From an uncultured Clostridia bacterium (lineage in GTDB: Bacteria > Bacillota > Clostridia > Christensenellales > CAG-917): DNA of 64,000 nt. A program made the position numbers and the translations under genes. A model generated the notes under the pieces. That model ran no database searches. It saw only the letters and a program-made list of their open reading frames with translations, and was not told the origin of the DNA. Location of the stretch: positions 10,240 to 74,239 of the forward strand of contig CAKQMI010000002.1 in the NCBI GenBank assembly GCA_934254835.1. Direction: 5' to 3'. Position 1 is the first letter of the stretch. Each line of letters begins with the position of its first letter. Shown here piece by piece: positions 52,618-64,000 of this stretch.

Positions 52618-53760
52618 TTAAATGGTATTATCAGTATAATAATTTACCGCTTTTGTTGTCAAAGGATAAACCGCCCTGCCCGTTTCGACAACGTAATCGC
52701 GACTGTAAGTCAGGCATTTGATAAATCCCTTTTCAAAATCATTATACACGGCTTTTCGCAAACTTTCAACCCCTTTGAAATCTCTTTCCGACGAAATGAG
52801 GTCGGAAACGTAAATAAGTTTTTCAAAAGACGTCATATTTTCGCGCCCGGTGGTGTGGAAGCGAATGGCGTTCAGCAACTCATCGTCCGAAATTTTGAAG
52901 TCTTTTTTGACAATTTCCGCACTTACGAACTGGTGCTGTACGGGCGAGCCGATCGAATCGGCAGGAATAAGATTTTTGAGATTTTCGGGCAATTTTTCCT
53001 TATCGTACCTCTTCCCGACGTCGTGCAAAAGCCCCGCCAACAACACTTTATTTTCGTCAATCATTAGACAAAAGTTACGATTTAGCGACAGCGCAGTAAG
53101 CGCGGTATTCTTGCTGTGCAAAAACCTTTTTTCGTCCAAATACCTTTCCGCCTTGTCAACGTAAGGGAAGAATTTGGAATATAAGTCGTGCGACTTTATA
53201 TACGCCAAGACTTTTGAATTAAGCCCCGAAACGTCCGCTTTCAACAACAGTCTGTCTCGTATGCTGTGGCTATCGAGCTCGCGCCCGACGTAATCCAAAA
53301 CACGGATATTCCCCTGCCATTTTTCGTTGAGTTCTTGCGCCTTTTTTCTGGCGTCCGGATACCCCTCGCGATTGAAAACCGCAATCTCAAAACTCCTGAC
53401 AATATACTCGGGATTATGCCAACTTTCAATCGCCAACAAACTGTCGCCACCGATGACATAAACAAACTTTCCGTACTTGTTTTCGAGCCGTGGCAAATTG
53501 TCGGACGAATAATTGACGCCCTCGTTTTTGTTTTCGATATCGTCGATGATAATCTCGGCAGGCACCGTCGAAAACGCCAGACGAGCCATCTCGGCGCGGT
53601 CATAAAACGGCGTCTCGGACGCGCTTTTGTGTGGCGGATTTTTGGTGGGTACAACGATAACTCTGTCGGCGCAAAGTTCGTTCACCGCCGACTTCAAAAT
53701 GTTTATGTGTTCGTCGTGGACGGGATCGAAACTCCCGCCGAAAACTACGTTCTTTATCAT
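52618..53760 (-). CDS. nadD: Fusion of nicotinate-nucleotide adenylyltransferase NadD with a YqeK-type HD phosphohydrolase
   Basis: 380 aa. The N-terminus GGSFDPVHDEHI carries the (H/T)xGH-type motif, and GGDSL is present. The C-terminal half has HS...LAGLLHDVGK (HD domain) as in YqeK. These are normally two adjacent genes upstream of rsfS. Confidence 0.85.
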   Translation of the reverse strand: MIKNVVFGGSFDPVHDEHINILKSAVNELCADRVIVVPTKNPPHKSASETPFYDRAEMARLAFSTVPAEIIIDDIENKNEGVNYSSDNLPRLENKYGKFVYVIGGDSLLAIESWHNPEYIVRSFEIAVFNREGYPDARKKAQELNEKWQGNIRVLDYVGRELDSHSIRDRLLLKADVSGLNSKVLAYIKSHDLYSKFFPYVDKAERYLDEKRFLHSKNTALTALSLNRNFCLMIDENKVLLAGLLHDVGKRYDKEKLPENLKNLIPADSIGSPVQHQFVSAEIVKKDFKISDDELLNAIRFHTTGRENMTSFEKLIYVSDLISSERDFKGVESLRKAVYNDFEKGFIKCLTYSRDYVVETGRAVYPLTTKAVNYYTDNTI

Positions 53761-53820: not shown

Positions 53821-54516
53821 ATGGAATTCTATAAAATCATCGATAATATCACGGCGCGGTTTTTGGTGTTTTTGTTGAACGCAGTGTGGATTCAGTACTT
53901 TGTGCGCAACGTTTTGGCGTCCTTAGTCATTGCGTTTTCGCTGACGCTTTTGATGTTTATCGTCGCAAAAAAGGCGATGGAAAAAGTCCCGCACGACAAA
54001 ATCGACAAATCGGAAATTTACAAATCTTTCGTACTTATGCGCCCCGATGACCTGAAAAAACGCTACTTATCCCTCTCAAACGACGAAAATTTTGTCAAGT
54101 GTGCGATGCGGTTTTCAAATGCGTCGATTGACGACGTCGCGTCGGCGTATCGAGAAAGCGACGGCAATCCCGCCACCCTGCTTGTCGGAAATGCCACAAG
54201 AAGCGTTTTCGTTTTTGCGTCGTCGCTCGAAACCCCCGTCAAAATCGTGACGAAAAAGGACTTGTACAAACTTTTTAAGGCGAATAACGCCCTTCCCGAA
54301 ATCAAAACGAAACCCGCCGAAAAACCGCCCCTTAACGCCAAAGAAATTTTGAAAGCGACGTTTTCCCCAAAAAACGCCAAGTACTTTTTGTTTTCCGCGG
54401 TGCTACTTTCTTTGACCGCATTTTTCACGCCGTTCAAACTTTACTATGCCATAATGGCAAGTGTGTCGATTGTGTTTTCGCTTGTTTCGACAATCAGAGG
54501 AATAAGGGAAAATTAA
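53821..54516 (+). CDS. Hypothetical membrane protein (231 aa)
   Basis: ATG start. Two N-terminal and two C-terminal hydrophobic helices flank a soluble middle region. No recognisable motif. Confidence 0.55.
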   Translation: MEFYKIIDNITARFLVFLLNAVWIQYFVRNVLASLVIAFSLTLLMFIVAKKAMEKVPHDKIDKSEIYKSFVLMRPDDLKKRYLSLSNDENFVKCAMRFSNASIDDVASAYRESDGNPATLLVGNATRSVFVFASSLETPVKIVTKKDLYKLFKANNALPEIKTKPAEKPPLNAKEILKATFSPKNAKYFLFSAVLLSLTAFFTPFKLYYAIMASVSIVFSLVSTIRGIREN

Positions 54517-54517
54517 A

Positions 54518-54545
54518 AACGCGACGAAAAGTCGCGTTTACATTT
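54518..54545 (+). terminator. Weak hairpin terminator
   Basis: AACGCGAC-GAAAA-GTCGCGTT followed by TACATTTTT. Confidence 0.4.
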
Positions 54546-54611
54546 TTCAAATGAATTATCGAAAAATCACCGATATTTTTGCGTTATTTTAATGCAATTA
54601 AAAATCTTTTG

Positions 54612-56036
54612 TCATTTTTCTAAAACGGAGATTGCGCTTGCAATCGTCTTTTCGTAGGCTTCCATACCGTATTTATCGACGTCCGTCTTGCTCTTTTCTC
54701 CGTGGGTAAGACACCCCGCCCCGCCTATGCAACCGCCGACGCACGCCATGCCCTCGATGAAGTTTGCGTCAAGTCTGCCCTTCGATTTTTGCATAAGCGC
54801 GATTTTGCACGCCTCGATGCCGTCGCACGAGGTGGCTTTCAGTTCAAAATCACTGCCGTGTTCAATAAGTCCCTCTTTGACGGCGTCTGCAAGTCCACCG
54901 CACCGCGCGAAAATTCGTCCGAAATACGACGCGTTGTCAAGGACACCTTCTTTTAGCGTCGTTAGGTCGATATCACGGCTGTCGAACAACGCTTGCAATT
55001 CCTCAAAAGTCATCGCGACGTCAACGTAAGGACGCACTTCTTTCTTTTGTACCTCGGCTTTTTTTGCGGTGCAAGGTCCGATAAACACGACTTTGCAAGG
55101 CGCTTCGTGCTCTTTGATATACTTCGCGATCGTTGCCATCGGCGAAAGATTGTGCGACACGAACGGACGCAAATCCTTGAAGTTCTTTTCGATGTAATCG
55201 ACGAAAGCGGGACAGCACGAACTTGTGAGAAATCCTTTTTCTGCAAGTTCCTTTGACTCGGCATCGGCGACCATATCCGCGCCGAGCGCAGCCTCGACGA
55301 CGGTATAAAACCCAAGTTCTTTCAACCCCGTGACGACCTGTCCGAGTTTTGCGTAAGTGAACTGGCTGGACACCGACGGCGCAACGACCGCAAACACCTT
55401 AAACTTTTTATTGTTTTTACTTTTTTTCAATATATCGACGACGTTGATAATATACGACTTGTCGGTGATCGCGCCGAACGGGCATTGATAGACGCACGCC
55501 CCGCACGCGATACATTTTGAGTTATCGATTTTCGCTTCTTTGTCCTGCCCCATCGAGATGGCTTTGACCTTGCACGCGGACTCGCACGGACGGCGATAAT
55601 TTTGTATTGCGCTGTACGGACAAACCTTTGCGCACGCCCCACACTCTTTGCACTTCGACTTGTCGATATGCGCAACGTGATTATGGTCAAAAGTTATGGC
55701 ACCGAAGCGACACACGTCCTCACAACGGTGGGCAAGACAGCCCCTGCAAGAGTTGGTCACTTCATATCCGCCCATCGGACATTCGTCGCAAGCGATATCG
55801 ATGACTTCGATGACGTTGGGGTTTTTCTTGTCCCCGCCCGTCGCGATTTTGACGCGCTCCGTGAGGATTGCCCTTTCCTTATAAACACAGCACCGCATTG
55901 TCGGCACTTTGCCGGGAACGATGATTTTCGGAATGTCCAAAATATTGTCCTCAAGCGTGCCTGCCCACGCCTGTTTTGCAACTTCACGCAGTACCTTGTA
56001 TTTAAGGTACTGCACTTTAGTATCGAATTTTCTCAT
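54612..56036 (-). CDS. [FeFe]-hydrogenase-family protein with N-terminal ferredoxin-like 4Fe-4S domains (HfsD-like)
   Basis: 474 aa. Two CxxCxxCxxxCP motifs (CKECGACAKVCP and CIACGACVYQCP). H-cluster motifs TSSCCPAF (L1), GPCTAKKAE (L2) and EGMACVGGCIGGAG (L3). Confidence 0.85.
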   Translation of the reverse strand: MRKFDTKVQYLKYKVLREVAKQAWAGTLEDNILDIPKIIVPGKVPTMRCCVYKERAILTERVKIATGGDKKNPNVIEVIDIACDECPMGGYEVTNSCRGCLAHRCEDVCRFGAITFDHNHVAHIDKSKCKECGACAKVCPYSAIQNYRRPCESACKVKAISMGQDKEAKIDNSKCIACGACVYQCPFGAITDKSYIINVVDILKKSKNNKKFKVFAVVAPSVSSQFTYAKLGQVVTGLKELGFYTVVEAALGADMVADAESKELAEKGFLTSSCCPAFVDYIEKNFKDLRPFVSHNLSPMATIAKYIKEHEAPCKVVFIGPCTAKKAEVQKKEVRPYVDVAMTFEELQALFDSRDIDLTTLKEGVLDNASYFGRIFARCGGLADAVKEGLIEHGSDFELKATSCDGIEACKIALMQKSKGRLDANFIEGMACVGGCIGGAGCLTHGEKSKTDVDKYGMEAYEKTIASAISVLEK

Positions 56037-56054
56037 TAAAAACTAAAAAACCTC

Positions 56055-57227
56055 TTAAAAATAACTGACTTTTATGCGTTTTCCCATTTGTTTCAGGCAC
56101 TTTGACAACTCCTCGACGAGGTTCATCTTGATATTGAAATTTATGGGAAGGTCGGGATTTTGGTGCGCGGGATTGACCGCTCGCCCGACGAAAAAGTTGA
56201 TGTCGGTGGCTTCTTCAAACAGCAGACGCGCAATAAGACACGCGCCGTCGCGTCCGAAGCTCCACTTTTCGTAAAGTTTGTTTTCGCCAAGAGAGTCCTC
56301 GGCGTATTCCAGCACTTTACTGACGGTGATAACGCCCTCCGTCACAAGGTCAACGCCTTCGATTTCGGCGATTGGCGGGACATCCCCTCCGTCGTAGTTA
56401 ATGCTGGCTTTCAGCGGTTTGCCAAGGTATTTCGCGACAATGGACGAAGTCGTGCCACCGCAGACGATATGTTTGCCCTCTTTCGAGAAAAACAACGCCA
56501 TCATACGGTTTGCGTCGTCGCGATTGGACGGAGGTCCGAAAAGGATATTCATCGGCACGCGCTGTCTGACTTTTATGACGCAAGCGGTGGCGTCGTCGCC
56601 GGGTTGCCCGCCGTAAAGCCTCATGCACTCGTCCACCAAAATGGTTGAATAGGTCTTGGCGGTGTAGCCCGCGGGAGCGATTGTTTCCAAAAAGTCGACG
56701 ATATCGTCCCTTTTCCAGCCGAAGTTGTATTCTCGCCCGATACCCGCATGCGGACAGCCGTCGCTCATAGCGACGAAAATGTCGTTTTCCTGAAGTTTCA
56801 CGGTGGATTTCAAAATCTTTTTCCCGCCGATATTCATTTCTATCGTGGGATAGTCAAAGTTTTGGTCGTCGCGAATCAGGATAACCTGCGGGTTGTCGTA
56901 CTGGATAATTTCCGCTTCTTTGTTGTCGACGATATGGATAATCGTGAACGTGGAATACGCCACGCCCCTGACCGAACAAATCGGCAAAGTCGCGGCGATG
57001 GTCTCGACGCAGTCCTCGATTGTCAAGCCTTCCGCCATCATCGTCGAGATGATTTTTGACGTCAAAGTGGACAAAATACTTGCCTTGACGCCACTTCCCA
57101 ACCCGTCGGCAAGCACGATAACCGTCGAATTGTCACCGCTTTCGACGACGTCGACGTGGTCACCGCAAAGTTGCTCGCCAAAATGGTTTATGCTTTTATA
57201 GCCGATGTCAACGCACAAGTCATTCAT
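56055..57227 (-). CDS. PP2C/SpoIIE-family protein phosphatase (HfsC-like)
   Basis: 390 aa. GEQLCGDHVDVVE...VIVLADGLGSGVKASILS is the SpoIIE/PP2C metal-binding pattern. The start overlaps the stop of the upstream HydS gene by 8 nt. Confidence 0.85.
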   Translation of the reverse strand: MNDLCVDIGYKSINHFGEQLCGDHVDVVESGDNSTVIVLADGLGSGVKASILSTLTSKIISTMMAEGLTIEDCVETIAATLPICSVRGVAYSTFTIIHIVDNKEAEIIQYDNPQVILIRDDQNFDYPTIEMNIGGKKILKSTVKLQENDIFVAMSDGCPHAGIGREYNFGWKRDDIVDFLETIAPAGYTAKTYSTILVDECMRLYGGQPGDDATACVIKVRQRVPMNILFGPPSNRDDANRMMALFFSKEGKHIVCGGTTSSIVAKYLGKPLKASINYDGGDVPPIAEIEGVDLVTEGVITVSKVLEYAEDSLGENKLYEKWSFGRDGACLIARLLFEEATDINFFVGRAVNPAHQNPDLPINFNIKMNLVEELSKCLKQMGKRIKVSYF

Positions 57228-58896
57228 TATCGATTGATTCCTTCAATTTGGTCAGCGCGATTTTGGTTTCCGCCGCGGTCTCGCCGAGGAGCGACGCGAT
57301 TTCTTGCACGACGCGCATTTGTTTGTCAACGACTTTGTCGGCGATTTCAATGGTCTGGCGTGAAATTTTTTCTTTCTTTTCGCGCTCGGTTTCCTCGTCG
57401 GTGACGTCGCGCATTATGCAGATAAGCAGATGATAGGTTGCGTCGTAAACGACGGTTTCTTCAACGTACTTTCCGTATTCGGCAAGATAAACTCGTTGGT
57501 CGCGTACGTTGCGTTTTGTGGACAGCACCTGCAAGAACACGCCGGGATCCATAATGCGTACGACGGGTTCGCCCAAAATATCGGACGAGGAGCGCACGTT
57601 CATAATCTTTCTTGCGGCGGTGTTGATTTGTTGTACTTCCAGTTTTTCATTCAGAACGAAAAGCCCGTTGGGCGTGTTGTTGACTATGCAATCCGAAAAA
57701 CTTTCGGCTTTGTCTTTAAGGTACGGCAGACACATCGAAAGTTCCGCCTTGCCCTGCAAAACCGCGATTGCTTTCTCGCGACAAGTGTCGTATCCGCAAG
57801 AACCGCAGTTGAGTTCGTCCTCTTTTTTATATTTGCCCATCTCGCGAAGTTCGGCGTTGATTTCCGCCTCGGACGGCATCTTCAACTCGTGGTCGATGGG
57901 GATAAAGTGCTTTCTGATTTCAAGGGCTTCGGGTTGATTTACCTCAAAGTCCTTTTTGCCCGCGTACTTCGCGACCGACGTATAGTCTTTCACGGGCGAG
58001 CGGTGGTATTTTTCCATGACGGGACCGCCGACGCAACTTCCGATGCACGCCGACATCTCGATGAAACAGTTGTGGACGTTGCCGTTTTCGATATCTTTCA
58101 AGCATTCCTTGCAGTTTTCGACGCCGTCCACCGCCATATAGGTGTACTTGTCGTTTTGCAAAGCCATGGTTTTAAGGATACCGCCCGTCGTCGGGAAAAA
58201 TCTGGCGCGACTTTTTTCGGTGACGTCCAAATCGGGCTCAAGTTCGATGCGGGCTTCTTTCAGCCACTCGGTGAGTTCCTCAAAGGTCAACACTGCGTCG
58301 ATATAGCCTTCGTAATAATCCGCCTCGTCCTTTTTCGACACGCAGGGACCGACAAACACGACTTTTGCGTTTTTATCGCGCTTTTTAATGTCGCGCGCGT
58401 GCGCAAGCATAGGCGACAAAACGTCCGCAAGATACGGAAGCATTTGGGGAAAATATTTTTGTATAAGCAGATTTATTGAATGACAGCACGACGTGATGAT
58501 GACGTCGCGTTTATCGTCCTCAATCATTCTTTCGTATTCGGTTTTTACGATGGTCGCGCCGATTGCGGTCTCCTCGACGTCGAAAAATCCCAACTTTTTC
58601 AGGGCTTTTCTCATACCGCCGATACCGATGTTTTCGTAATTTGCAATGAACGACGGCGCAAGGCTGACGTAAACGGGATCGCCCGTCTGAATAAGGACTT
58701 TTGCCTTTTCGACCTCGGACGCAATCTCTTTTGCGTTTTGCGGACACACGACGAAGCACTGTCCGCACAAAATGCACTCATTGCCGATAATGTGCGCCTG
58801 ATTGCCCGAAAACCTTATGGACTTCACGGGACAATGGCGTATGCATTTGTAGCAGTTTTTGCAGTTTGATTTTTTAAGCGTAAGACAATCGGACAT
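57220..58896 (-). CDS. Sensory-type [FeFe]-hydrogenase with a C-terminal Cys cluster and PAS domain (HydS/HfsB-like, group C)
   Basis: 558 aa. N-terminal 2x[4Fe-4S] (CKNCYKCIRHCP and CILCGQCFVVCP). H-cluster motifs TSCCHS, GPCVSKKDE and EMSACIGSCVGGP. These are followed by CGSCGYDTC and a ~110-aa PAS-like segment with a coiled tail. Confidence 0.85.
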   Translation of the reverse strand: MSDCLTLKKSNCKNCYKCIRHCPVKSIRFSGNQAHIIGNECILCGQCFVVCPQNAKEIASEVEKAKVLIQTGDPVYVSLAPSFIANYENIGIGGMRKALKKLGFFDVEETAIGATIVKTEYERMIEDDKRDVIITSCCHSINLLIQKYFPQMLPYLADVLSPMLAHARDIKKRDKNAKVVFVGPCVSKKDEADYYEGYIDAVLTFEELTEWLKEARIELEPDLDVTEKSRARFFPTTGGILKTMALQNDKYTYMAVDGVENCKECLKDIENGNVHNCFIEMSACIGSCVGGPVMEKYHRSPVKDYTSVAKYAGKKDFEVNQPEALEIRKHFIPIDHELKMPSEAEINAELREMGKYKKEDELNCGSCGYDTCREKAIAVLQGKAELSMCLPYLKDKAESFSDCIVNNTPNGLFVLNEKLEVQQINTAARKIMNVRSSSDILGEPVVRIMDPGVFLQVLSTKRNVRDQRVYLAEYGKYVEETVVYDATYHLLICIMRDVTDEETEREKKEKISRQTIEIADKVVDKQMRVVQEIASLLGETAAETKIALTKLKESIDNE

Positions 58897-58904
58897 AGCT
58901 CCCC

Positions 58905-59165
58905 CTATTTTTCAAGAAAAAGTCTCGGCGCGACATTATCGCGCCAAAACTCATTGAACGTTTCGGGCGTTACGCCCGTGAATATTTCGTCGTTTACAGT
59001 GACGGTAACTCCTTCGCGGTTGCACTTCCCCGCGCAGAAACTTCCACAAAGTATGACTTCATCGTCCAGTTTTTGCTCCTTAACCTTCTTTTCGAACAGC
59101 GTCACGATTTCGGGTGCGCCTTTCAGGTGGCAAGAACTGCCGACGCAAATTTGTACGATAACCAT
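58905..59165 (-). CDS. Thioredoxin-like [2Fe-2S] ferredoxin (HfsA/NuoE-like), paralogue 2
   Basis: 86 aa. The Cys pattern is CVGSSCHLKG...CGSFCAGKC. Confidence 0.8.
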   Translation of the reverse strand: MVIVQICVGSSCHLKGAPEIVTLFEKKVKEQKLDDEVILCGSFCAGKCNREGVTVTVNDEIFTGVTPETFNEFWRDNVAPRLFLEK

Positions 59166-59407
59166 TATATCCTCGTCAAAATTTCGTTATTGAAAAATTC
59201 ATCGACGGTTTCGGGGCTGACCGAAAAGAACTTGTCGCCAACCGTCACCGAGACTCCTTCCTGACAGCGTCCCATACAGAACGTGCCACCGAGTTCGACC
59301 TTGTCTTTTATCTTGTTTTCGGCGATGAGGTATTGCAATCTTTCAACGACCTGACGCGAACCTTTGATGTGACAAGAACTTCCGATACATACAACTACTT
59401 TTATCAT
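59165..59407 (-). CDS. Thioredoxin-like [2Fe-2S] ferredoxin (HfsA/NuoE-like), paralogue 1
   Basis: 80 aa. CIGSSCHIKG...GGTFCMGRC. The stop overlaps the start of the next paralogue by 1 nt. Confidence 0.8.
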   Translation of the reverse strand: MIKVVVCIGSSCHIKGSRQVVERLQYLIAENKIKDKVELGGTFCMGRCQEGVSVTVGDKFFSVSPETVDEFFNNEILTRI

Positions 59408-59435
59408 TTTTCCCTTTTTCCCTCCTTTTCACGGT

Positions 59436-60185
59436 TTATTGATATTCGACAACGTTCACCCAAGACAGCAGGAATTCGCGTTCCTTTTCGTTGCCTTTTA
59501 CCGATTGCGAAGCCGCAACGATGGGCATCCATTTCTGAACGTATTGTTTTTTGGTATCCGTCTTTTCGCAGAACATATCGAGGTATTCGTTTGCGCCGTC
59601 AATATCGCCGTTGAGCCAGAACAAAAGGTAAGTTCTTGCGACGTCGGCGGAGGCGTTGCCCTGCGTTGCGTGCGACCAGTCGATGACGTACGCTTTTCCG
59701 TCGTCGCCGATGATGATGTTGGACGGGTTGAAATCACCGTGGCAAAGTTTGTTGTGCTTGGGCATGCCCTCGAGCCTCGTGTGCAAGTCATAGCGAGTTG
59801 TCGCGTCGATGTCCGCCTCGGAGATTTTCCTGTTCATTTTGTCCTTCAATTTATTGAGGAGCGGACAGGTTTTGGACTGCACTTCGATTTGCAAATTCAC
59901 GAAAAGTTCCAGATATTCGTGTTTTTTGTCGGGATTTTCAGCCATAAGTCTGTCCAAAGTTTTGCCTTTGATAAACTCGCTGATGATTGCCCATTTGCCG
60001 TCGATGGTTTCCACCGCCTTGACCTTGGGGATATTGAGCCCCGTCTCCTCGACGCGAGCCTGATTCAAAGCCTCGTTCAGGACGTCGGCTTTTTTGAAAT
60101 CTTTGTCAAAGACTTTGACGCAATTTTCGCCGTCGCGATAAACCGTCTTGTTGGTTCTGACTGCAATTACTCTGTCTAAATCCAT
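59436..60185 (-). CDS. APH/choline-kinase-family phosphotransferase (eukaryotic-like kinase fold)
   Basis: 249 aa. HGDFNPSNIII (the HxDxxxxN catalytic loop) and VIDWSHA (metal-binding Asp). Confidence 0.8.
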   Translation of the reverse strand: MDLDRVIAVRTNKTVYRDGENCVKVFDKDFKKADVLNEALNQARVEETGLNIPKVKAVETIDGKWAIISEFIKGKTLDRLMAENPDKKHEYLELFVNLQIEVQSKTCPLLNKLKDKMNRKISEADIDATTRYDLHTRLEGMPKHNKLCHGDFNPSNIIIGDDGKAYVIDWSHATQGNASADVARTYLLFWLNGDIDGANEYLDMFCEKTDTKKQYVQKWMPIVAASQSVKGNEKEREFLLSWVNVVEYQ

Positions 60186-60197
60186 ACCCTTCTCCCT

Positions 60198-62903
60198 CTA
60201 TTTCGATTTTTTATTTTCGTTGTATACTTTTTTGAAGTCGCGAGGATCGACCTTAACGTTCGCTTCCAACTCGACCTCGGGCAACGCCTTTTCGACAAAA
60301 GACTTGCCATAGTATGCGTTCAAATACATTTGTTTGATTTCGCTCATCAGCGGATAACGCGGGTTCGCGCCGGTGCATTGATCGTCGAAAGCCTGCTCCA
60401 CCATCTCGTCCAAACGATTAAGGAAATCTTGCTCGTCGGGGACGTAGTCGCGGATTGTCTTTTTGATGCCGACGCTTGCTTTCAGCCCGTCGATTGCTTT
60501 GATGAGGTTTTCAAGTTTTTCCTCGTCGGTGTTTCCGAAAATCCCAAGGTATTCGGCAACTTCGGCGTACCTTCTCAAAGTGTGCGGGTGGTCGTACTGC
60601 GGGAACGTGCCCATCTTTGTCGGCACTTCGGACGCATTAAATCTCAACACTTCGTCAATCATCAAAGCGTTTGCGACGCCGTGCGGGAGATGATGGAACG
60701 AGCCGAGTTTGTGCGCCATCGAGTGGCATACGCCGAGGAACGCGTTGGCAAAAGCCATGCCCGCCATAGTTGCCGCATTCGCCATTTTTTCGCGAGCGAC
60801 GACGTCGGATTGACCGTTTTCGTAAGCGCGCGGTAAATATTCGAATATTGTTTTCAGCGATTTCAGCGCAAGACCGTCGGTATAGTCGGTTGCAAGCATC
60901 GAAGCATACGCTTCAAGAGCGTGCGTCACTGCGTCGATACCGCTCGCCGCTGTAAGTCCGCGAGGTGCGCTCATGTGGAAATCGGTGTCGATAATCGCCA
61001 TTTTGGGCAAAAGTTCGTAGTCGGCAAGCGGATATTTCACGCCCGTCTTTTCGTCGGTGATGACCGCAAACGGAGTGACCTCACTGCCCGTGCCCGCAGA
61101 CGTCGGGATTGCGATGAAATATGCCTTTTCGCCCATCTTCGGGAAGGTGTAAACACGTTTTCTGATGTCCATAAAGCGCATTGCCATATCCATAAAATCG
61201 GCTTCGGGGTGCTCGTACATTACCCACATAATCTTGCCGGCGTCCATTGCCGAGCCACCGCCGAGAGCGATGATGCAGTCGGGATTGAAGTCGCGCATTT
61301 GCTTTGCACCCTCTTTTGCACAAGCAAGCGTGGGATCGGGTGCGACGTCAAAGAACGTCGTATGGACAATGCCCATTTCGTCCAGTTTATCGCAAATAGG
61401 CTTTGTATAGCCGTTGTTGTAAAGGAAACTGTCGGTGACGATGAACGCCCTCTTCTTTCCCATAACCGTCTTTAACTCATCAAGAGCGACGGGTAAACAG
61501 CCTTTTTTGATGTATATCTTCTCGGGTGCTCTGAACCACAACATATTTTCTCTCCTTTCCGCAACGGTTTTGATATTGACAAGATGCTTGACGCCGACGT
61601 TTTCGCTGACGCTGTTTCCTCCCCAGGTGCCACAGCCCAAAGTGAGCGACGGCGCGAGTTTGAAGTTGTACAAATCACCAATACCACCTTGCGACGAAGG
61701 AGTGTTGACAAGCACACGGCAAGTTTTCATACGGCTTTGGAATTCGTCCAGTTTTGCACGTTCCGTGATTTCATTGAGATATATCGACGACGTGTGACCG
61801 TAGCCTCCGTCGGCGATGAGTTTTTCTGCTTTTGTAAATGCGTCCTCGATGTCTTTTGCGCGGTACATTGCAAGCACCGGCGAAAGTTTCTCGTGCGCAA
61901 ATTCTTCGGATATATCGACGCTTTCGACCTCGCCGATCAAAATCTTGGTGCCTTCGGGAACGGTGACGCCCGAAAGTTGCGCGATAGTCACCGCCTTTTG
62001 TCCGACGATTTTTGCGTTGAGTGCGCCGTTTATCAATATGGTTTTTCTGACTTTTTCGGTTTCGTCGCGGTCAAGGAAGTAGCAACCTCTTTCCAAAAAC
62101 TCGCTTCTTACGGCGTCGTATACCTTGTCCAAAACGATGACCGACTGCTCGGACGCGCAAATCATACCGTTGTCGAACGTCTTTGAGTGGATTATCGAGT
62201 TGACGGCAAGCACGACGTCCGCGGTGTCGTCGATGATTGCGGGAGTGTTGCCCGCGCCGACGCCCAATGCGGGTTTGCCGGACGAATACGCCGCCTTTAC
62301 CATGCCGGGACCGCCCGTTGCAAGGATAATGTCAGCTTCTTTCATAATAAGGTTGGTCATTTCAAGCGACGGGACGTCGATCCAACCTATAATGCCCTCG
62401 GGTGCGCCTGCCGAAACAGCCGCTTCCAACACGACTTTCGCCGCCTCGATGGTGCAATGTTTTGCGCGGGGGTGCGGACTGATAATGATACCGTTTCTGG
62501 TTTTCAATGAAATCAGCGTTTTGAAAATCGCGGTTGACGTGGGATTGGTCGTGGGGATAACCGCCGCGACAAGTCCGACGGGCTCGGCAATCTTTTTGAT
62601 GCCGTACGCCTTGTCCTCCTCGATGACGCCACAGGTTTTTACGTTGCGATATGCGTTGTAAATGTATTCGGACGCATAGTGGTTTTTGATGACCTTATCT
62701 TCGACGATACCCATACCGGTTTCCTCAACCGCCATTTTTGCAAGGGGTATGCGCATTTTGTTGGCGGCGGTAGCAGCAGCCAAAAAGATTTTGTCCACCT
62801 GCTCTTCCGAATAGGTTGCAAATTTTCTTTGCGCCTCGCGCACGCTTGCGATTTTTTCGATAAGCGCGTCGACGCAATCGACGACTTTCACTTTGTTTTC
62901 CAT
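60198..62903 (-). CDS. adhE: Bifunctional acetaldehyde-CoA / alcohol dehydrogenase AdhE
   Basis: 901 aa. N-terminal ALDH domain (catalytic Cys in DNGMICASEQS) and C-terminal iron-ADH domain (GGGSAMDAGK and HSMAHKLG). Confidence 0.97.
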   Translation of the reverse strand: MENKVKVVDCVDALIEKIASVREAQRKFATYSEEQVDKIFLAAATAANKMRIPLAKMAVEETGMGIVEDKVIKNHYASEYIYNAYRNVKTCGVIEEDKAYGIKKIAEPVGLVAAVIPTTNPTSTAIFKTLISLKTRNGIIISPHPRAKHCTIEAAKVVLEAAVSAGAPEGIIGWIDVPSLEMTNLIMKEADIILATGGPGMVKAAYSSGKPALGVGAGNTPAIIDDTADVVLAVNSIIHSKTFDNGMICASEQSVIVLDKVYDAVRSEFLERGCYFLDRDETEKVRKTILINGALNAKIVGQKAVTIAQLSGVTVPEGTKILIGEVESVDISEEFAHEKLSPVLAMYRAKDIEDAFTKAEKLIADGGYGHTSSIYLNEITERAKLDEFQSRMKTCRVLVNTPSSQGGIGDLYNFKLAPSLTLGCGTWGGNSVSENVGVKHLVNIKTVAERRENMLWFRAPEKIYIKKGCLPVALDELKTVMGKKRAFIVTDSFLYNNGYTKPICDKLDEMGIVHTTFFDVAPDPTLACAKEGAKQMRDFNPDCIIALGGGSAMDAGKIMWVMYEHPEADFMDMAMRFMDIRKRVYTFPKMGEKAYFIAIPTSAGTGSEVTPFAVITDEKTGVKYPLADYELLPKMAIIDTDFHMSAPRGLTAASGIDAVTHALEAYASMLATDYTDGLALKSLKTIFEYLPRAYENGQSDVVAREKMANAATMAGMAFANAFLGVCHSMAHKLGSFHHLPHGVANALMIDEVLRFNASEVPTKMGTFPQYDHPHTLRRYAEVAEYLGIFGNTDEEKLENLIKAIDGLKASVGIKKTIRDYVPDEQDFLNRLDEMVEQAFDDQCTGANPRYPLMSEIKQMYLNAYYGKSFVEKALPEVELEANVKVDPRDFKKVYNENKKSK

Positions 62904-63011
62904 TTGAAAATCTCCCGTACGTATTTATTTTAACTTTTATACGCGACTTCGGCAAGCATTATTTACCTTTTTTACTTCGTAAACTCAACTTTTCGTCGTC
63001 GCCGTCAAACT

Positions 63012-63029
63012 TTGTTAAATTTCTAACAA
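63012..63029. promoter_or_regulatory. Candidate Rex operator 1 upstream of adhE
   Basis: TTGTTAA-ATTT-CTAACAA versus the clostridial Rex consensus TTGTTAANNNNTTAACAA: one mismatch. It lies 109 nt upstream of the adhE ATG. Confidence 0.55.
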
Positions 63030-63039
63030 TCTCTTGACA

Positions 63040-63057
63040 TTGTTAATAATATAACAA
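63040..63057. promoter_or_regulatory. Candidate Rex operator 2 upstream of adhE
   Basis: TTGTTAA-TAAT-ATAACAA: one mismatch to the same consensus. It begins 28 nt after the start of operator 1. Confidence 0.55.
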
Positions 63058-63144
63058 TCTTTTGCGGTTGTGAAATAGTACTTTTATATAAAGATATATC
63101 AAAATAAATATAAGCGTTTTTTTGTATTTTTATCCGCCGAAAAT

Positions 63145-63180
63145 AAAAAACCGATTGTATAAATACAATCGGCTGTTTTT
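63145..63180 (-). terminator. Rho-independent (bidirectional-looking) terminator after the LysR-family gene
   Basis: CCGATTGTAT-AAA-TACAATCGG, flanked by an A-run and a T-run. Confidence 0.7.
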
Positions 63181-63191
63181 GTATTTTTGCT

Positions 63192-64000
63192 TTACAGGAA
63201 TTTCCGCTTTGCTTCGCACAGTTTTGTGATGAAAGTTTTGTCAAGAGCCGTCAAATGATAATCCTTTTTATATATAAGGACATCTTTATACATTTTCGTA
63301 TTTTCGGAGCACGGCTTCGATGTAAGCCCGTATTTTTCAAGTTTTTCGGTGGGAACAGGCGACACCCACATAAAAGTTTCGTCGTTTTTGGATAAGACGT
63401 CGAACTGACTTCCCCTCTCGAACACGAAAATACGGCGGGTTATCTCGCCCTGCAACGCCTCTTTTCTGACCTCTGCCAAAGGAAGCGACGGCACAAACGG
63501 ATCGGCGTGCGCGATTTCGATATAGTTTTTGAGGTCGGAATACTTGATTTCGTCCAACTCGTTCAACGCGCTTTCCTTCGAGAAAATCAAGACGTAGTGG
63601 AATTCGGCGATAAGTTCGTGATTCAGTCCTTTTTGCTCCGCCATTTCCTTGAAGTACTTGTCGTACTGCTCGGCGTAGCGCAAAATCCCGAGTTTATAAT
63701 CTTTTTCAAGTATATTGTTTATCGCGCGCAAGGCGTTTGTTTCCTTATAAAAGATTTCAAAATTGTCTTCCTTTTCAAGACACTTTGAAAACTCCGCAAA
63801 GGCGTTTGAAATATAACTTGCGCGGGGCACCGAAATCGAAAAGGACTTTTTCTCGTCCCGCTCGCCCTTGAAGGCGTTTTCGACCTCGTTAATTTGGCGC
63901 AAAATGGTTTTTCCGTATTCGATAAGTCTTTCGCCGTCGGGCGTGAGCGTCATGCCCTTGGAATTTCTGTCAAAAATCGTGATGCCCAAGTCTTTTTCCA
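63192..64000 (-). CDS. LysR-family transcriptional regulator (5' end outside the window)
   Basis: The reading frame stays open to the window edge. LGITIFDRNSKGMTLTPDGERL is the end of the LysR HTH and linker region, followed by a substrate-binding domain. The TTG flagged as the ORF start at 63989 is internal. Confidence 0.85.
   Translation of the reverse strand, partial: EKDLGITIFDRNSKGMTLTPDGERLIEYGKTILRQINEVENAFKGERDEKKSFSISVPRASYISNAFAEFSKCLEKEDNFEIFYKETNALRAINNILEKDYKLGILRYAEQYDKYFKEMAEQKGLNHELIAEFHYVLIFSKESALNELDEIKYSDLKNYIEIAHADPFVPSLPLAEVRKEALQGEITRRIFVFERGSQFDVLSKNDETFMWVSPVPTEKLEKYGLTSKPCSENTKMYKDVLIYKKDYHLTALDKTFITKLCEAKRKFL

Follow-up and report, generated by a model that had tools for sequence, protein, structure and literature searches.

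A seven-gene block from adhE to a group B hydrogenase in an uncultured Clostridia bacterium probably forms one operon of a known type

The locus raises the question of why adhE lies in one block with a PAS-domain [FeFe]-hydrogenase, a phosphatase and a kinase, and whether the block acts as a single unit. The window (the whole 64,000-nt stretch of DNA that was analysed) comes from an 84-kb contig, part of a draft genome of 1.5 Mb. Seven co-directional ORFs occupy 54612-62903 of its minus strand, in the order adhE, APH-fold kinase, two small [2Fe-2S] proteins, HydS-type PAS-[FeFe]-hydrogenase, PP2C and group B [FeFe]-hydrogenase (Table 1). An ORF check recovered all seven where the first-pass annotation had placed them, and its gaps of -8 to +28 nt were reproduced from the sequence (+12, +28, -1, +8, -8 and +18 nt, 5' to 3'). 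We give a probability of about 0.8 to the reading that this is one operon, equivalent to the cluster rex-adhE-kinase-fdx-fdx-hydS-PP2C-hydA2 on pRUMAL01 of Ruminococcus albus 7, and that it encodes a 'high-hydrogen' fermentation mode with a built-in putative sensor unit.

Table 1. Features of the locus (window coordinates; a dot stands for no single strand)
Feature	Position	Strand	Details
LysR-family regulator, 3' part	63192..64000	-	full length 307 aa, leaves window; HTH_1 PF00126 in full-length contig ORF
Terminator-like hairpin + T-run, end of LysR transcript	63149..63174	-	11 pairs, then TTTTTATTTTC
Sigma-70-like promoter candidate	63046..63074	-	TTCACA, 17 nt spacer, TATTAT; 10/12 matches; consensus match only
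Rex-box-like operator 1	63040..63057	.	TTGTTATATTATTAACAA (coding strand); 1 mismatch to TTGTTAANNNNTTAACAA; overlaps -10 hexamer; consensus match only
Rex-box-like operator 2	63012..63029	.	TTGTTAGAAATTTAACAA (coding strand); 28 nt 3' of box 1; consensus match only
adhE, bifunctional acetaldehyde-CoA/alcohol dehydrogenase, 901 aa	60198..62903	-	NF010378, 1389 bits vs cut-off 951
APH/ChoK-fold kinase, 249 aa	59436..60185	-	PF01636; 12 nt past adhE stop codon
Thioredoxin-like [2Fe-2S] protein 1, 80 aa	59165..59407	-	2Fe-2S_thioredx PF01257; Cys7, 12, 44, 48
Thioredoxin-like [2Fe-2S] protein 2, 86 aa	58905..59165	-	2Fe-2S_thioredx PF01257
15-bp hairpin, then UUUUCUUG	58920..58952	-	last codons of [2Fe-2S] protein 2 gene; 24 nt before hydS start
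HydS/HfsB-type PAS-[FeFe]-hydrogenase, 558 aa	57220..58896	-	Fer4 + Fe_hyd_lg_C + PF04060 FeS + PAS
PP2C/SpoIIE-family phosphatase, 390 aa	56055..57227	-	SpoIIE PF07228; Foldseek to SpoIIE, RsbU, RsbX
Group B (B1) monomeric [FeFe]-hydrogenase, HydA2/HfsD-type, 474 aa	54612..56036	-	TIGR04105 'FeFe_hydrog_B1', 560.8 bits vs cut-off 450
Bidirectional terminator-like hairpin, operon end	54517..54539	.	72 nt past hydrogenase stop codon

Judged from its sequence, the seven-gene block is a real operon. A terminator scan of 10.5 kb placed terminator-like hairpins on both flanks of the block and none in the intergenic gaps; with the gene content, the domain matches and the short gaps, this bears out the operon reading and the hfs/HydS assignment made at first pass. 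The upstream terminator-like hairpin would set LysR apart from the operon. Of 54 related loci, 37 have a co-directional LysR gene within the 2 kb upstream; conservation of the gdh, HAD and AKR genes beyond it was looked for in the related loci, and none was found. The promoter candidate is located about 145 nt 5' of the adhE ATG. Transcription would start in this region, from a promoter covered by the two putative Rex operators, so that a high NADH/NAD+ ratio would be predicted to de-repress the operon. The two boxes are the only Rex-box-like sites in the entire 64-kb window. Similar boxes (up to two mismatches) occur 5' of adhE in 9 of the 14 related loci that have adhE as the first gene, and a rex gene is present on another contig of the genome (NF003990, 285 bits; cut-off 233).

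The HydS protein consists of two [4Fe-4S] clusters, the H-domain, a Cx2Cx4Cx16C cluster, a PAS domain and a short C-terminal tail. Over the whole protein the PAS match reaches 21.4 bits; a scan restricted to the C-terminus gives 24.3 bits (cut-off 22.6). Residues 135-140 form TSCCHS, the L1 variant that the first-pass annotation had read together with the PAS domain. In the alignment with CpI, M353 is replaced by G183 and M497 by S282; every H-cluster ligand is retained, as is the proton-relay cysteine (CpI C299, here C137). The beginning of the PP2C gene and the end of hydS share 8 nt, as they do in 79 of 79 related loci, and HydS and PP2C behave as a single translationally coupled unit. The C-terminal α/β domain of PP2C (approximately residues 225-390) is uncharacterised, and Pfam and PDB sequence searches with it gave zero matches. 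The two [2Fe-2S] proteins are paralogues (44% identity). The final gene product belongs to group B and scores no more than about 80 bits against any group A structure. Its motifs had been called canonical, which is roughly right: L1 (TSSCCP) and L3 (EGMACVGGC) are as read, but L2 is GPCTAKKAE and MPC is absent. The other assignments made at first pass from motifs agree with the profile and fold matches: the kinase has an APH fold (PF01636, with both HGDFNPSN and IDW found), the third and fourth products are thioredoxin-like [2Fe-2S] proteins (PF01257), and the sixth is a PP2C/SpoIIE phosphatase (PF07228, Foldseek).

The linkage was surveyed across 300 sampled genomes of the same class. A HydS-like gene is present in 106 of these, and 37 of the 106 have adhE on the same strand at a distance of up to 6 kb, an adjacency whose recurrence elsewhere had been put forward as a check. 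The gene order around this linkage takes at least three different forms, and most of 80 related loci share the order seen here.

Two other readings of the block concern its transcript and its sensor. The transcript could consist of two units, with adhE, the kinase gene and both fdx genes ending at the hairpin in the fourth gene, and hydS, the PP2C gene and the hydrogenase gene depending on read-through or on an unrecognised promoter. This hairpin (-24.4 kcal/mol, z = -4.08; 0 of 200 shuffles equally stable) is the strongest terminator-like site of the scanned 10.5 kb, and a U-rich run comes after it; the first-pass statement that there is no internal terminator holds for the intergenic gaps but not for this gene. 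However, the U-run is interrupted, and as the hairpin sits within a translated ORF, ribosomes would normally melt it. The scan found no promoter-like site between the hairpin and hydS, the hairpin is not conserved in any of 81 related loci, and the orthologous R. albus cluster acts as one regulated unit (PMC6776011). Other copies of the hairpin, as a genomic repeat, were sought in the genome and none was found. We regard two separate units as quite unlikely and the hairpin as a candidate attenuator or terminator, which could split or attenuate the operon transcript. HydS, for its part, might be chiefly a catalytic or electron-transfer subunit of a multi-subunit 'Hfs' hydrogenase formed with the [2Fe-2S] proteins and the group B hydrogenase, with the PAS domain merely tuning activity. 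The retained proton-relay cysteine (TSCC), a feature of no more than about 17% of group C enzymes (PMC10055695), means that HydS could still have a catalytic role. The genes of two dedicated small Fe-S proteins adjoin hydS, the activity of TmHydS is measurable (PMC10055695), and Thermoanaerobacterium saccharolyticum has less hydrogenase activity once its entire hfs operon is deleted (PMC5707799). Deletion of hfsB only, by contrast, raised hydrogenase activity and altered adhE expression (PMC5707799), which is regulator-like behaviour, and the phenotype was restored by hfsD alone. The glycine and serine at the CpI M353 and M497 positions match the slow sensory enzyme TmHydS (PMC10055695), and the invariant translational coupling to PP2C points to signalling. 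A chiefly catalytic HydS is rather improbable in our view.

The kinase and PP2C had been proposed to form an antagonistic pair, a partner switch under HydS that acts on AdhE or on a regulator. Both genes share one operon in the window, R. albus and Clostridium thermocellum, and catalytic residues are invariant in both enzymes (in the kinase K24, H149-G150-D151, N156 and D169 across 31 orthologues). Moreover, 10 of 83 kinase homologues in the 300 genomes adjoin a HydS cluster without adhE. Against this, 65 of the 83 are located within 400 nt of adhE, and 38 of these 65 have no HydS or PP2C nearby, 29 of the 38 being in genomes without any HydS match. The adhE-kinase gap in related loci has a median of 15 nt and is at most 60 nt in 37 of 39. 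HydS-PP2C clusters also exist without the kinase (L011, L037, L038, L046, L051, L075, L082, G138 and G152). In two family-mates, G009 and G248, identity to the kinase and AdhE is 74% and 84%, and 67% and 81%, respectively, as compared to 41-46% for HydS and PP2C; the kinase tracks AdhE. A domain search of the operon products found no STAS or HATPase_c protein. The predicted kinase structure (pLDDT 92.6) is closest to APH(3'), APH(4), YtaA and LicA; the 50 best fold matches consist of small-molecule kinases and YtaA and include no kinase of the Hanks type. The partner switch is unlikely on these grounds. Gene linkage makes an action of the kinase on AdhE or the AdhE pathway plausible, and the kinase would be a functional partner of AdhE, not of the phosphatase.

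In the single-operon reading, AdhE would dispose of NADH as ethanol, and the ferredoxin-dependent group B hydrogenase would reoxidise ferredoxin with release of H2. The pair of small [2Fe-2S] proteins are probably redox partners of HydS or of the hydrogenase. HydS would bind H2 at its modified H-cluster, and the signal, as the literature suggests, may pass through the C-terminal [4Fe-4S]/PAS part to PP2C, whose translationally coupled gene is paired with hydS in the compared loci. The phosphatase would then act on a target and feed back on expression, with the conserved LysR neighbour as a candidate. Our literature search found neither experimental proof of H2 sensing by HydS nor a phosphatase target for any organism.

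The R. albus 7 pRUMAL01 cluster is reportedly treated by Zheng et al. 2014 (J Bacteriol 196:3840). The window operon is colinear with it (NC_014824.1 137906-147916), with protein identities of 56-76% (gene by gene 75, 72, 71, 56, 66, 76 and 73%). The cluster (RUMAL_RS17345-17385) encodes LysR, Rex, AdhE, a phosphotransferase, two (2Fe-2S) ferredoxins, HydS, a SpoIIE phosphatase and HydA2; order and strand are identical, LysR is the upstream neighbour in both, and sizes are close (249 aa kinase, 558 aa HydS, 389/390 aa PP2C). R. albus 7 has rex between LysR and adhE, where the window has no rex but two Rex boxes, its rex being on another contig. The R. albus cluster is carried on a megaplasmid, whereas the window operon is on a contig of a draft genome, and the hairpin within the fourth gene is peculiar to the window genome. 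The R. albus cluster drops 111-fold in low-H2 co-culture and is published as H2-regulated, with the sensor described as co-transcribed with hydrogenase and alcohol dehydrogenase (Greening et al. 2019, PMC6776011). The physical tie of adhE to an H2- and redox-sensing module, which the first-pass annotation had pointed out, is thus already published for the orthologous cluster, and it is visible in C. thermocellum (PMC3848806).

There, the co-regulated genes Cthe_0422-0430 (Clo1313_1798-1793; PMC3848806) encode Rex, AdhE, an 'aminoglycoside phosphotransferase', a hypothetical protein, HfsB, SpoIIE and hydrogenase subunits. The front half (Cthe_0422-0427) matches by gene order as rex-adhE-kinase-small protein-HydS-PP2C, but the downstream hydrogenase is, by annotation, multi-subunit and NADH-linked (Cthe_0428-0430) in place of the monomeric group B enzyme. 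Deletion of hfsB gives more ethanol in C. thermocellum, and hfsB deletion is reported to raise adhE transcript as well as ethanol (PMC5707799), in line with the ethanol effect given as background at first pass. The hfsABCD operons of T. saccharolyticum and T. thermosaccharolyticum have the same core of HfsB PAS-hydrogenase, HfsC PP2C and HfsD ferredoxin-linked hydrogenase; HfsD is described as R. albus HydA2-like, and an Fe-S protein gene precedes the core. The Thermoanaerobacterium operons, however, have no described kinase, and adhE (Tsac_0416) maps to another chromosomal site; the window also differs in its two [2Fe-2S] proteins of 80-86 aa. TmHydS of Thermotoga maritima, a biochemically characterised group C sensory [FeFe]-hydrogenase, shares the layout of N-terminal [4Fe-4S] clusters, H-domain, C-terminal 4-Cys cluster and PAS domain. 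Read through the alignment to CpI, it also shares the glycine at M353 and the serine at M497 (PMC10055695), but has alanine at the C299 position where the window HydS has cysteine. As this type of operon has already been described in R. albus 7 and C. thermocellum, the locus adds a new example of it but no new principle.

The seven open reading frames of the block lie on one strand, and ORF calls return exactly the coordinates and the range of gaps (-8 to +28 nt) that the first-pass annotation had given for them. Measured on the sequence in transcription order, from adhE to the terminal hydrogenase, successive genes are +12, +28, -1, +8, -8 and +18 nt apart. Profile searches bear out all seven of the gene assignments made there, and the motifs quoted with them are present: gene 5 has TSCCHS (residues 135-140), and the kinase has both HGDFNPSN and IDW. 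Co-transcription of the block is predicted on comparative grounds, from small gaps that are kept across species.

Features of the adhE-hydS operon and its borders (window coordinates)
Feature	Position	Strand	Details
LysR-family regulator	63192-64000 and beyond (432-1355 in L083, the extracted locus of the window's LysR side)		307 aa; co-directional, upstream
Terminator-like hairpin	63174-63149	minus	ends the LysR gene, upstream of operon
Promoter-like site	63074-63046	minus	3' of LysR terminator
Rex-box-like palindrome 1	63040-63057		1 mismatch to TTGTTAANNNNTTAACAA; overlaps -10 hexamer
Rex-box-like palindrome 2	63012-63029		1 mismatch to TTGTTAANNNNTTAACAA
Gene 1, AdhE	60198-62903	minus	901 aa; NF010378, 1389 bits (cut-off 951)
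Gene 2, APH-family kinase	59436-60185	minus	249 aa; PF01636
Gene 3, thioredoxin-like [2Fe-2S] protein	59165-59407	minus	80 aa; PF01257
Gene 4, thioredoxin-like [2Fe-2S] protein	58905-59165	minus	86 aa; PF01257
Perfect 15-bp hairpin, then UUUUCUUG	58952-58920	minus	last codons of gene 4
Gene 5, HydS-type PAS-[FeFe]-hydrogenase	57220-58896	minus	558 aa; PF02906, PF04060, PAS
Gene 6, SpoIIE/PP2C phosphatase	56055-57227	minus	390 aa; PF07228
Gene 7, group B1 monomeric [FeFe]-hydrogenase	54612-56036	minus	474 aa; TIGR04105, 560.8 bits (cut-off 450)
Bidirectional terminator-like hairpin	54539-54517		operon end

The H-domain of gene 5 (PF02906, 2.7e-52) is accompanied by two N-terminal CxxCxxCxxxC motifs for two [4Fe-4S] clusters, and C138, C185, C284 and C288 align with the H-cluster ligands of CpI. 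A PF04060 domain (1e-10) has C364, C367, C372 and C389 in the spacing Cx2Cx4Cx16C and is followed by the PAS domain (PF00989), which passes its cut-off of 22.6 bits when the C-terminus is scanned by itself (24.3 bits) and stays under it in a scan of the full protein (21.4 bits). M353 and M497 of CpI are replaced by Gly183 and Ser282; the characterised sensory enzyme TmHydS has the same residue types at these positions (G177 and S267; PMC10055695). C299 of CpI, the proton-relay cysteine, is retained as Cys137, the first cysteine of TSCC; in group C, only some 17% of the sequences have it (PMC10055695). From its architecture and its 66% identity to the Ruminococcus albus protein, we would place gene 5 with group C, the group to which the HydDB authors assign the R. 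albus orthologue (PMC6776011). Gene 5 could conceivably keep a residual catalytic role.

Gene 7 scores above the cut-off of TIGR04105 and below those of the group A models, and it has the Cys-rich N-terminal extension and two [4Fe-4S] clusters that group B requires. Its L1 and L3 motifs are canonical, as had been claimed for all three, but L2 reads GPC instead of MPC. The same glycine is reported in L2 of the group B enzyme CpIII (PMC10055695). The labels in use conflict: NCBIfam gives group B1 for gene 7 and, via 73% identity, for R. albus HydA2, whereas PMC6776011 calls the R. albus enzyme 'group A1'.

The structural model of the phosphatase (pLDDT 79.8) matches the PP2C domains of SpoIIE, RsbU and RsbX in Foldseek (5mqh, 5ucg and 3ke6, E = 1e-10 to 5e-15), and the metal-binding motifs DG, SDG and DD are invariant. 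Residues ~225-390 (window 56055-56555) form a separate, highly conserved α/β domain with the motifs HIxCGGTTS, DLVTEGVIT and NPAHQNP. This domain has no Pfam match even at E = 10, and among PDB sequences the best profile hit stood at E = 0.14. With the whole model, the Foldseek results are dominated by the PP2C domain.

A scan of the genome collection with gene 5 gave more than 590 relatives, and loci were compared for the 80 best of them, which are 73-80% identical and come mostly from uncultured Clostridia of gut and rumen. The order fdx-fdx-hydS-PP2C-hydrogenase is kept in nearly all of these 80. The end of hydS and the start of the PP2C gene share 8 nt in 79 of 79 related loci. Where the upstream side could be assessed, adhE is found there in 39 loci and is absent in 18; rex precedes adhE in 19 of the 39, and the other 20 are without rex, like the window. 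Between adhE and the kinase gene the median gap is 15 nt, and 37 of the 39 loci have at most 60 nt there. Prevalence was estimated in 300 genomes spread evenly over the class, 106 of which have a full-length HydS-like gene. The position of adhE beside an hfs-like cluster, as annotated for the window, recurs in 37 of these 106 (same strand, no more than 6 kb away; upstream in 29, as in the window, and downstream in 8) but not in the other 69, where adhE lies elsewhere or on another contig (28) or has no match (41). At least three distinct gene orders join adhE to HydS-PP2C, which points to repeated selection for this linkage.

The first-pass annotation had further proposed that the kinase and the phosphatase form a partner switch acting on AdhE or on a regulator. 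The phosphatase does belong to the SpoIIE/RsbU clade that such a switch employs; the HATPase_c kinase and the STAS antagonist that complete it are not encoded, as profile searches found neither domain in the seven proteins. The kinase model (pLDDT 92.6) has an APH fold. Its 50 best structural matches (TM 0.5-0.7) are kinases of the aminoglycoside/antibiotic type (APH(3'), APH(4), Cph001 and APH(2'')), putative APH proteins, kinases of the choline/ethanolamine type such as LicA, and YtaA, with no Hanks-type protein kinase among the 50. The catalytic Lys and the HGD...N and D(W) residues are invariant. The kinase also tracks AdhE: in the 300-genome sample, 65 of 83 homologues have an adhE no more than 400 nt away, and 10 of 83 lie by a HydS cluster that has no adhE. 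For 38 of the 65 adhE-adjacent kinases there is no HydS nearby, and 29 of these 38 are in genomes in which no HydS was found at all. The kinase adjoins adhE in 65 of 99 AdhE genes that are at least 64% identical to that of the window, and in 0 of 42 more distant ones. Gene company, fold and missing domains together speak against the partner switch.

Two sampled genomes of the window's own family, G009 (locus L084, G009:C7:54000-68000) and G248 (locus L085, G248:C3:40500-54500), keep the frame of the operon with a HydS-PP2C pair of another type. AdhE (84/81% in G009/G248), the kinase (74/67%) and the hydrogenase (72/55%) are close to those of the window, whereas HydS (43/41%) and PP2C (46/45%) are distant and their genes do not overlap. 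Because the identities split in this way, HydS and PP2C would be one evolving cassette and the kinase would go with AdhE. The pair looks like a cassette that was replaced or was moved by lateral transfer. The window's HydS is common to many other families at 70-75% identity. A bolder reading, with roughly one chance in three of being right, is that adhE and the kinase gene form a conserved two-gene unit in Clostridia, independent of the H2 sensor, with the kinase as a dedicated partner of AdhE. Of the earlier proposal, the part in which the kinase acts on AdhE or its pathway is retained as a suggestion, and gene linkage is what suggests it. As a dedicated partner, the kinase might have AdhE itself as its substrate, for example to control the activity or the filament state of that enzyme; alternatively, its substrate might be a small molecule from the acetyl-CoA/ethanol branch. 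A literature search returned no paper on the function of the kinase.

The two Rex-box-like palindromes of the promoter region are the only matches to TTGTTAANNNNTTAACAA (one mismatch each) within the 64-kb window; at least two such matches anywhere in the window arise in 8 of 100 shuffles. There is no rex gene between LysR and adhE in the window, and Rex is encoded on another contig of the same genome (G000:C4:46435-47067; NF003990, 285 bits; assembly of 1.51 Mb in 54 contigs, 80% complete). With an operator-like element in its promoter region and Rex in the genome, the operon is a putative member of the Rex regulon. Rex boxes with up to two mismatches occur 5' of adhE in 9 of 14 related loci in which adhE comes first. 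Where rex is encoded in the cluster, a canonical box precedes it in one of 23 loci (L006, L007, L009, L010 and 19 others), and the cluster-encoded Rex may use a different operator. Its identity to the Rex of the window genome is only 28%. An Rfam scan of 54000-64000 gave no match at E ≤ 1; therefore, the 5' UTR contains no known riboswitch or leader.

The absence of an internal terminator, as first described, holds for the gaps between the seven genes, which are too short for any terminator, but is less certain for the interior of gene 4. The hairpin there, a candidate terminator or attenuator, ends 24 nt ahead of the hydS start and folds at -24.4 kcal/mol (z = -4.08). It was not found in 81 related loci. 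The idea of a conserved attenuator was discarded: the 80-nt segment folds at -31.9 kcal/mol in the window, whereas the relatives have a median of -12.9 over the corresponding 80 nt and none goes lower than -21.4 kcal/mol. A repeat element was likewise rejected, since the sequence occurs once in the genome.

The terminator-like hairpin upstream separates the LysR gene from adhE. Even so, 37 of 54 related loci, and R. albus 7 as well, have a co-directional LysR gene no more than 2 kb upstream; conservation does not extend to the genes beyond it. LysR is unlikely to regulate the neighbouring gdh instead of the operon because related loci keep LysR while none of them has gdh, HAD or AKR. As a candidate, LysR could supply the missing output or act as a co-regulator of the operon. 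On the other side, just 3' of the operon, a convergent ORF of 231 aa (53821-54516, plus strand) has no above-threshold match in Pfam or NCBIfam. A further ORF of 380 aa (52618-53760, minus strand) joins NadD (nicotinate-nucleotide adenylyltransferase) and a YqeK-type HD domain; its NF005519 score of 246.6 bits is below the cut-off of 315.

Taken from the operator-like sequences, high NADH would relieve repression by Rex and open the promoter. By family assignment, AdhE would re-oxidise NADH and the group B hydrogenase would re-oxidise ferredoxin. HydS, going by the literature, would report H2 to the coupled PP2C, so that phosphorylation of a target changes and feeds back on expression. Operons of this type are the best genomic clue to the switch between acetate plus H2 and ethanol that arises in fermenting gut and rumen Clostridia when hydrogen builds up. 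They also underlie biofuel engineering, in which deletion of hfsB raises the ethanol yield.

The best match to gene 5 among plasmid-record proteins is from R. albus 7 pRUMAL01 (66.5% identity), where the annotation reads LysR, Rex, adhE, phosphotransferase, two (2Fe-2S) ferredoxins, [FeFe]-hydrogenase domain protein, SpoIIE phosphatase and 4Fe-4S dicluster protein. Order and strand are as in the window, gene lengths are almost equal, and window proteins 1-7 are 75, 72, 71, 56, 66, 76 and 73% identical to their counterparts; the R. albus cluster differs in having rex first. This locus was described by Greening et al. 2019; its expression drops 111-fold where H2 is held low by a hydrogen consumer (PMC6776011). 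The Clostridium thermocellum cluster has the front half in common with the window: Cthe_0422 (rex), 0423 (adhE), 0424 ('aminoglycoside phosphotransferase'), 0425 (hypothetical), 0426 (Fe-S protein) and 0427 (SpoIIE) precede hydrogenase subunits, and this region is co-regulated (PMC3848806). The hfs genes of C. thermocellum are Clo1313_1796-1793, and adhE is Clo1313_1798. Compared by domain architecture with published descriptions of hfsABCD, the window has HfsB-, HfsC- and HfsD-like genes in that order, with two small [2Fe-2S] proteins at the position of HfsA. The first-pass observation is confirmed and its interpretation partly supported: the central inference, a physical tie between adhE and a module for H2 and redox sensing, is right but already in print for the R. 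albus 7 cluster, and it can be seen in C. thermocellum. The window is a further example of the R. albus 7-type operon and adds no new principle. What the comparison sharpens is the question: the sensor's real partner would be the translationally coupled PP2C, the kinase would belong to AdhE, and LysR is a possible output. The same genes are present in R. albus 7 and C. thermocellum, where all three points can be tested directly.
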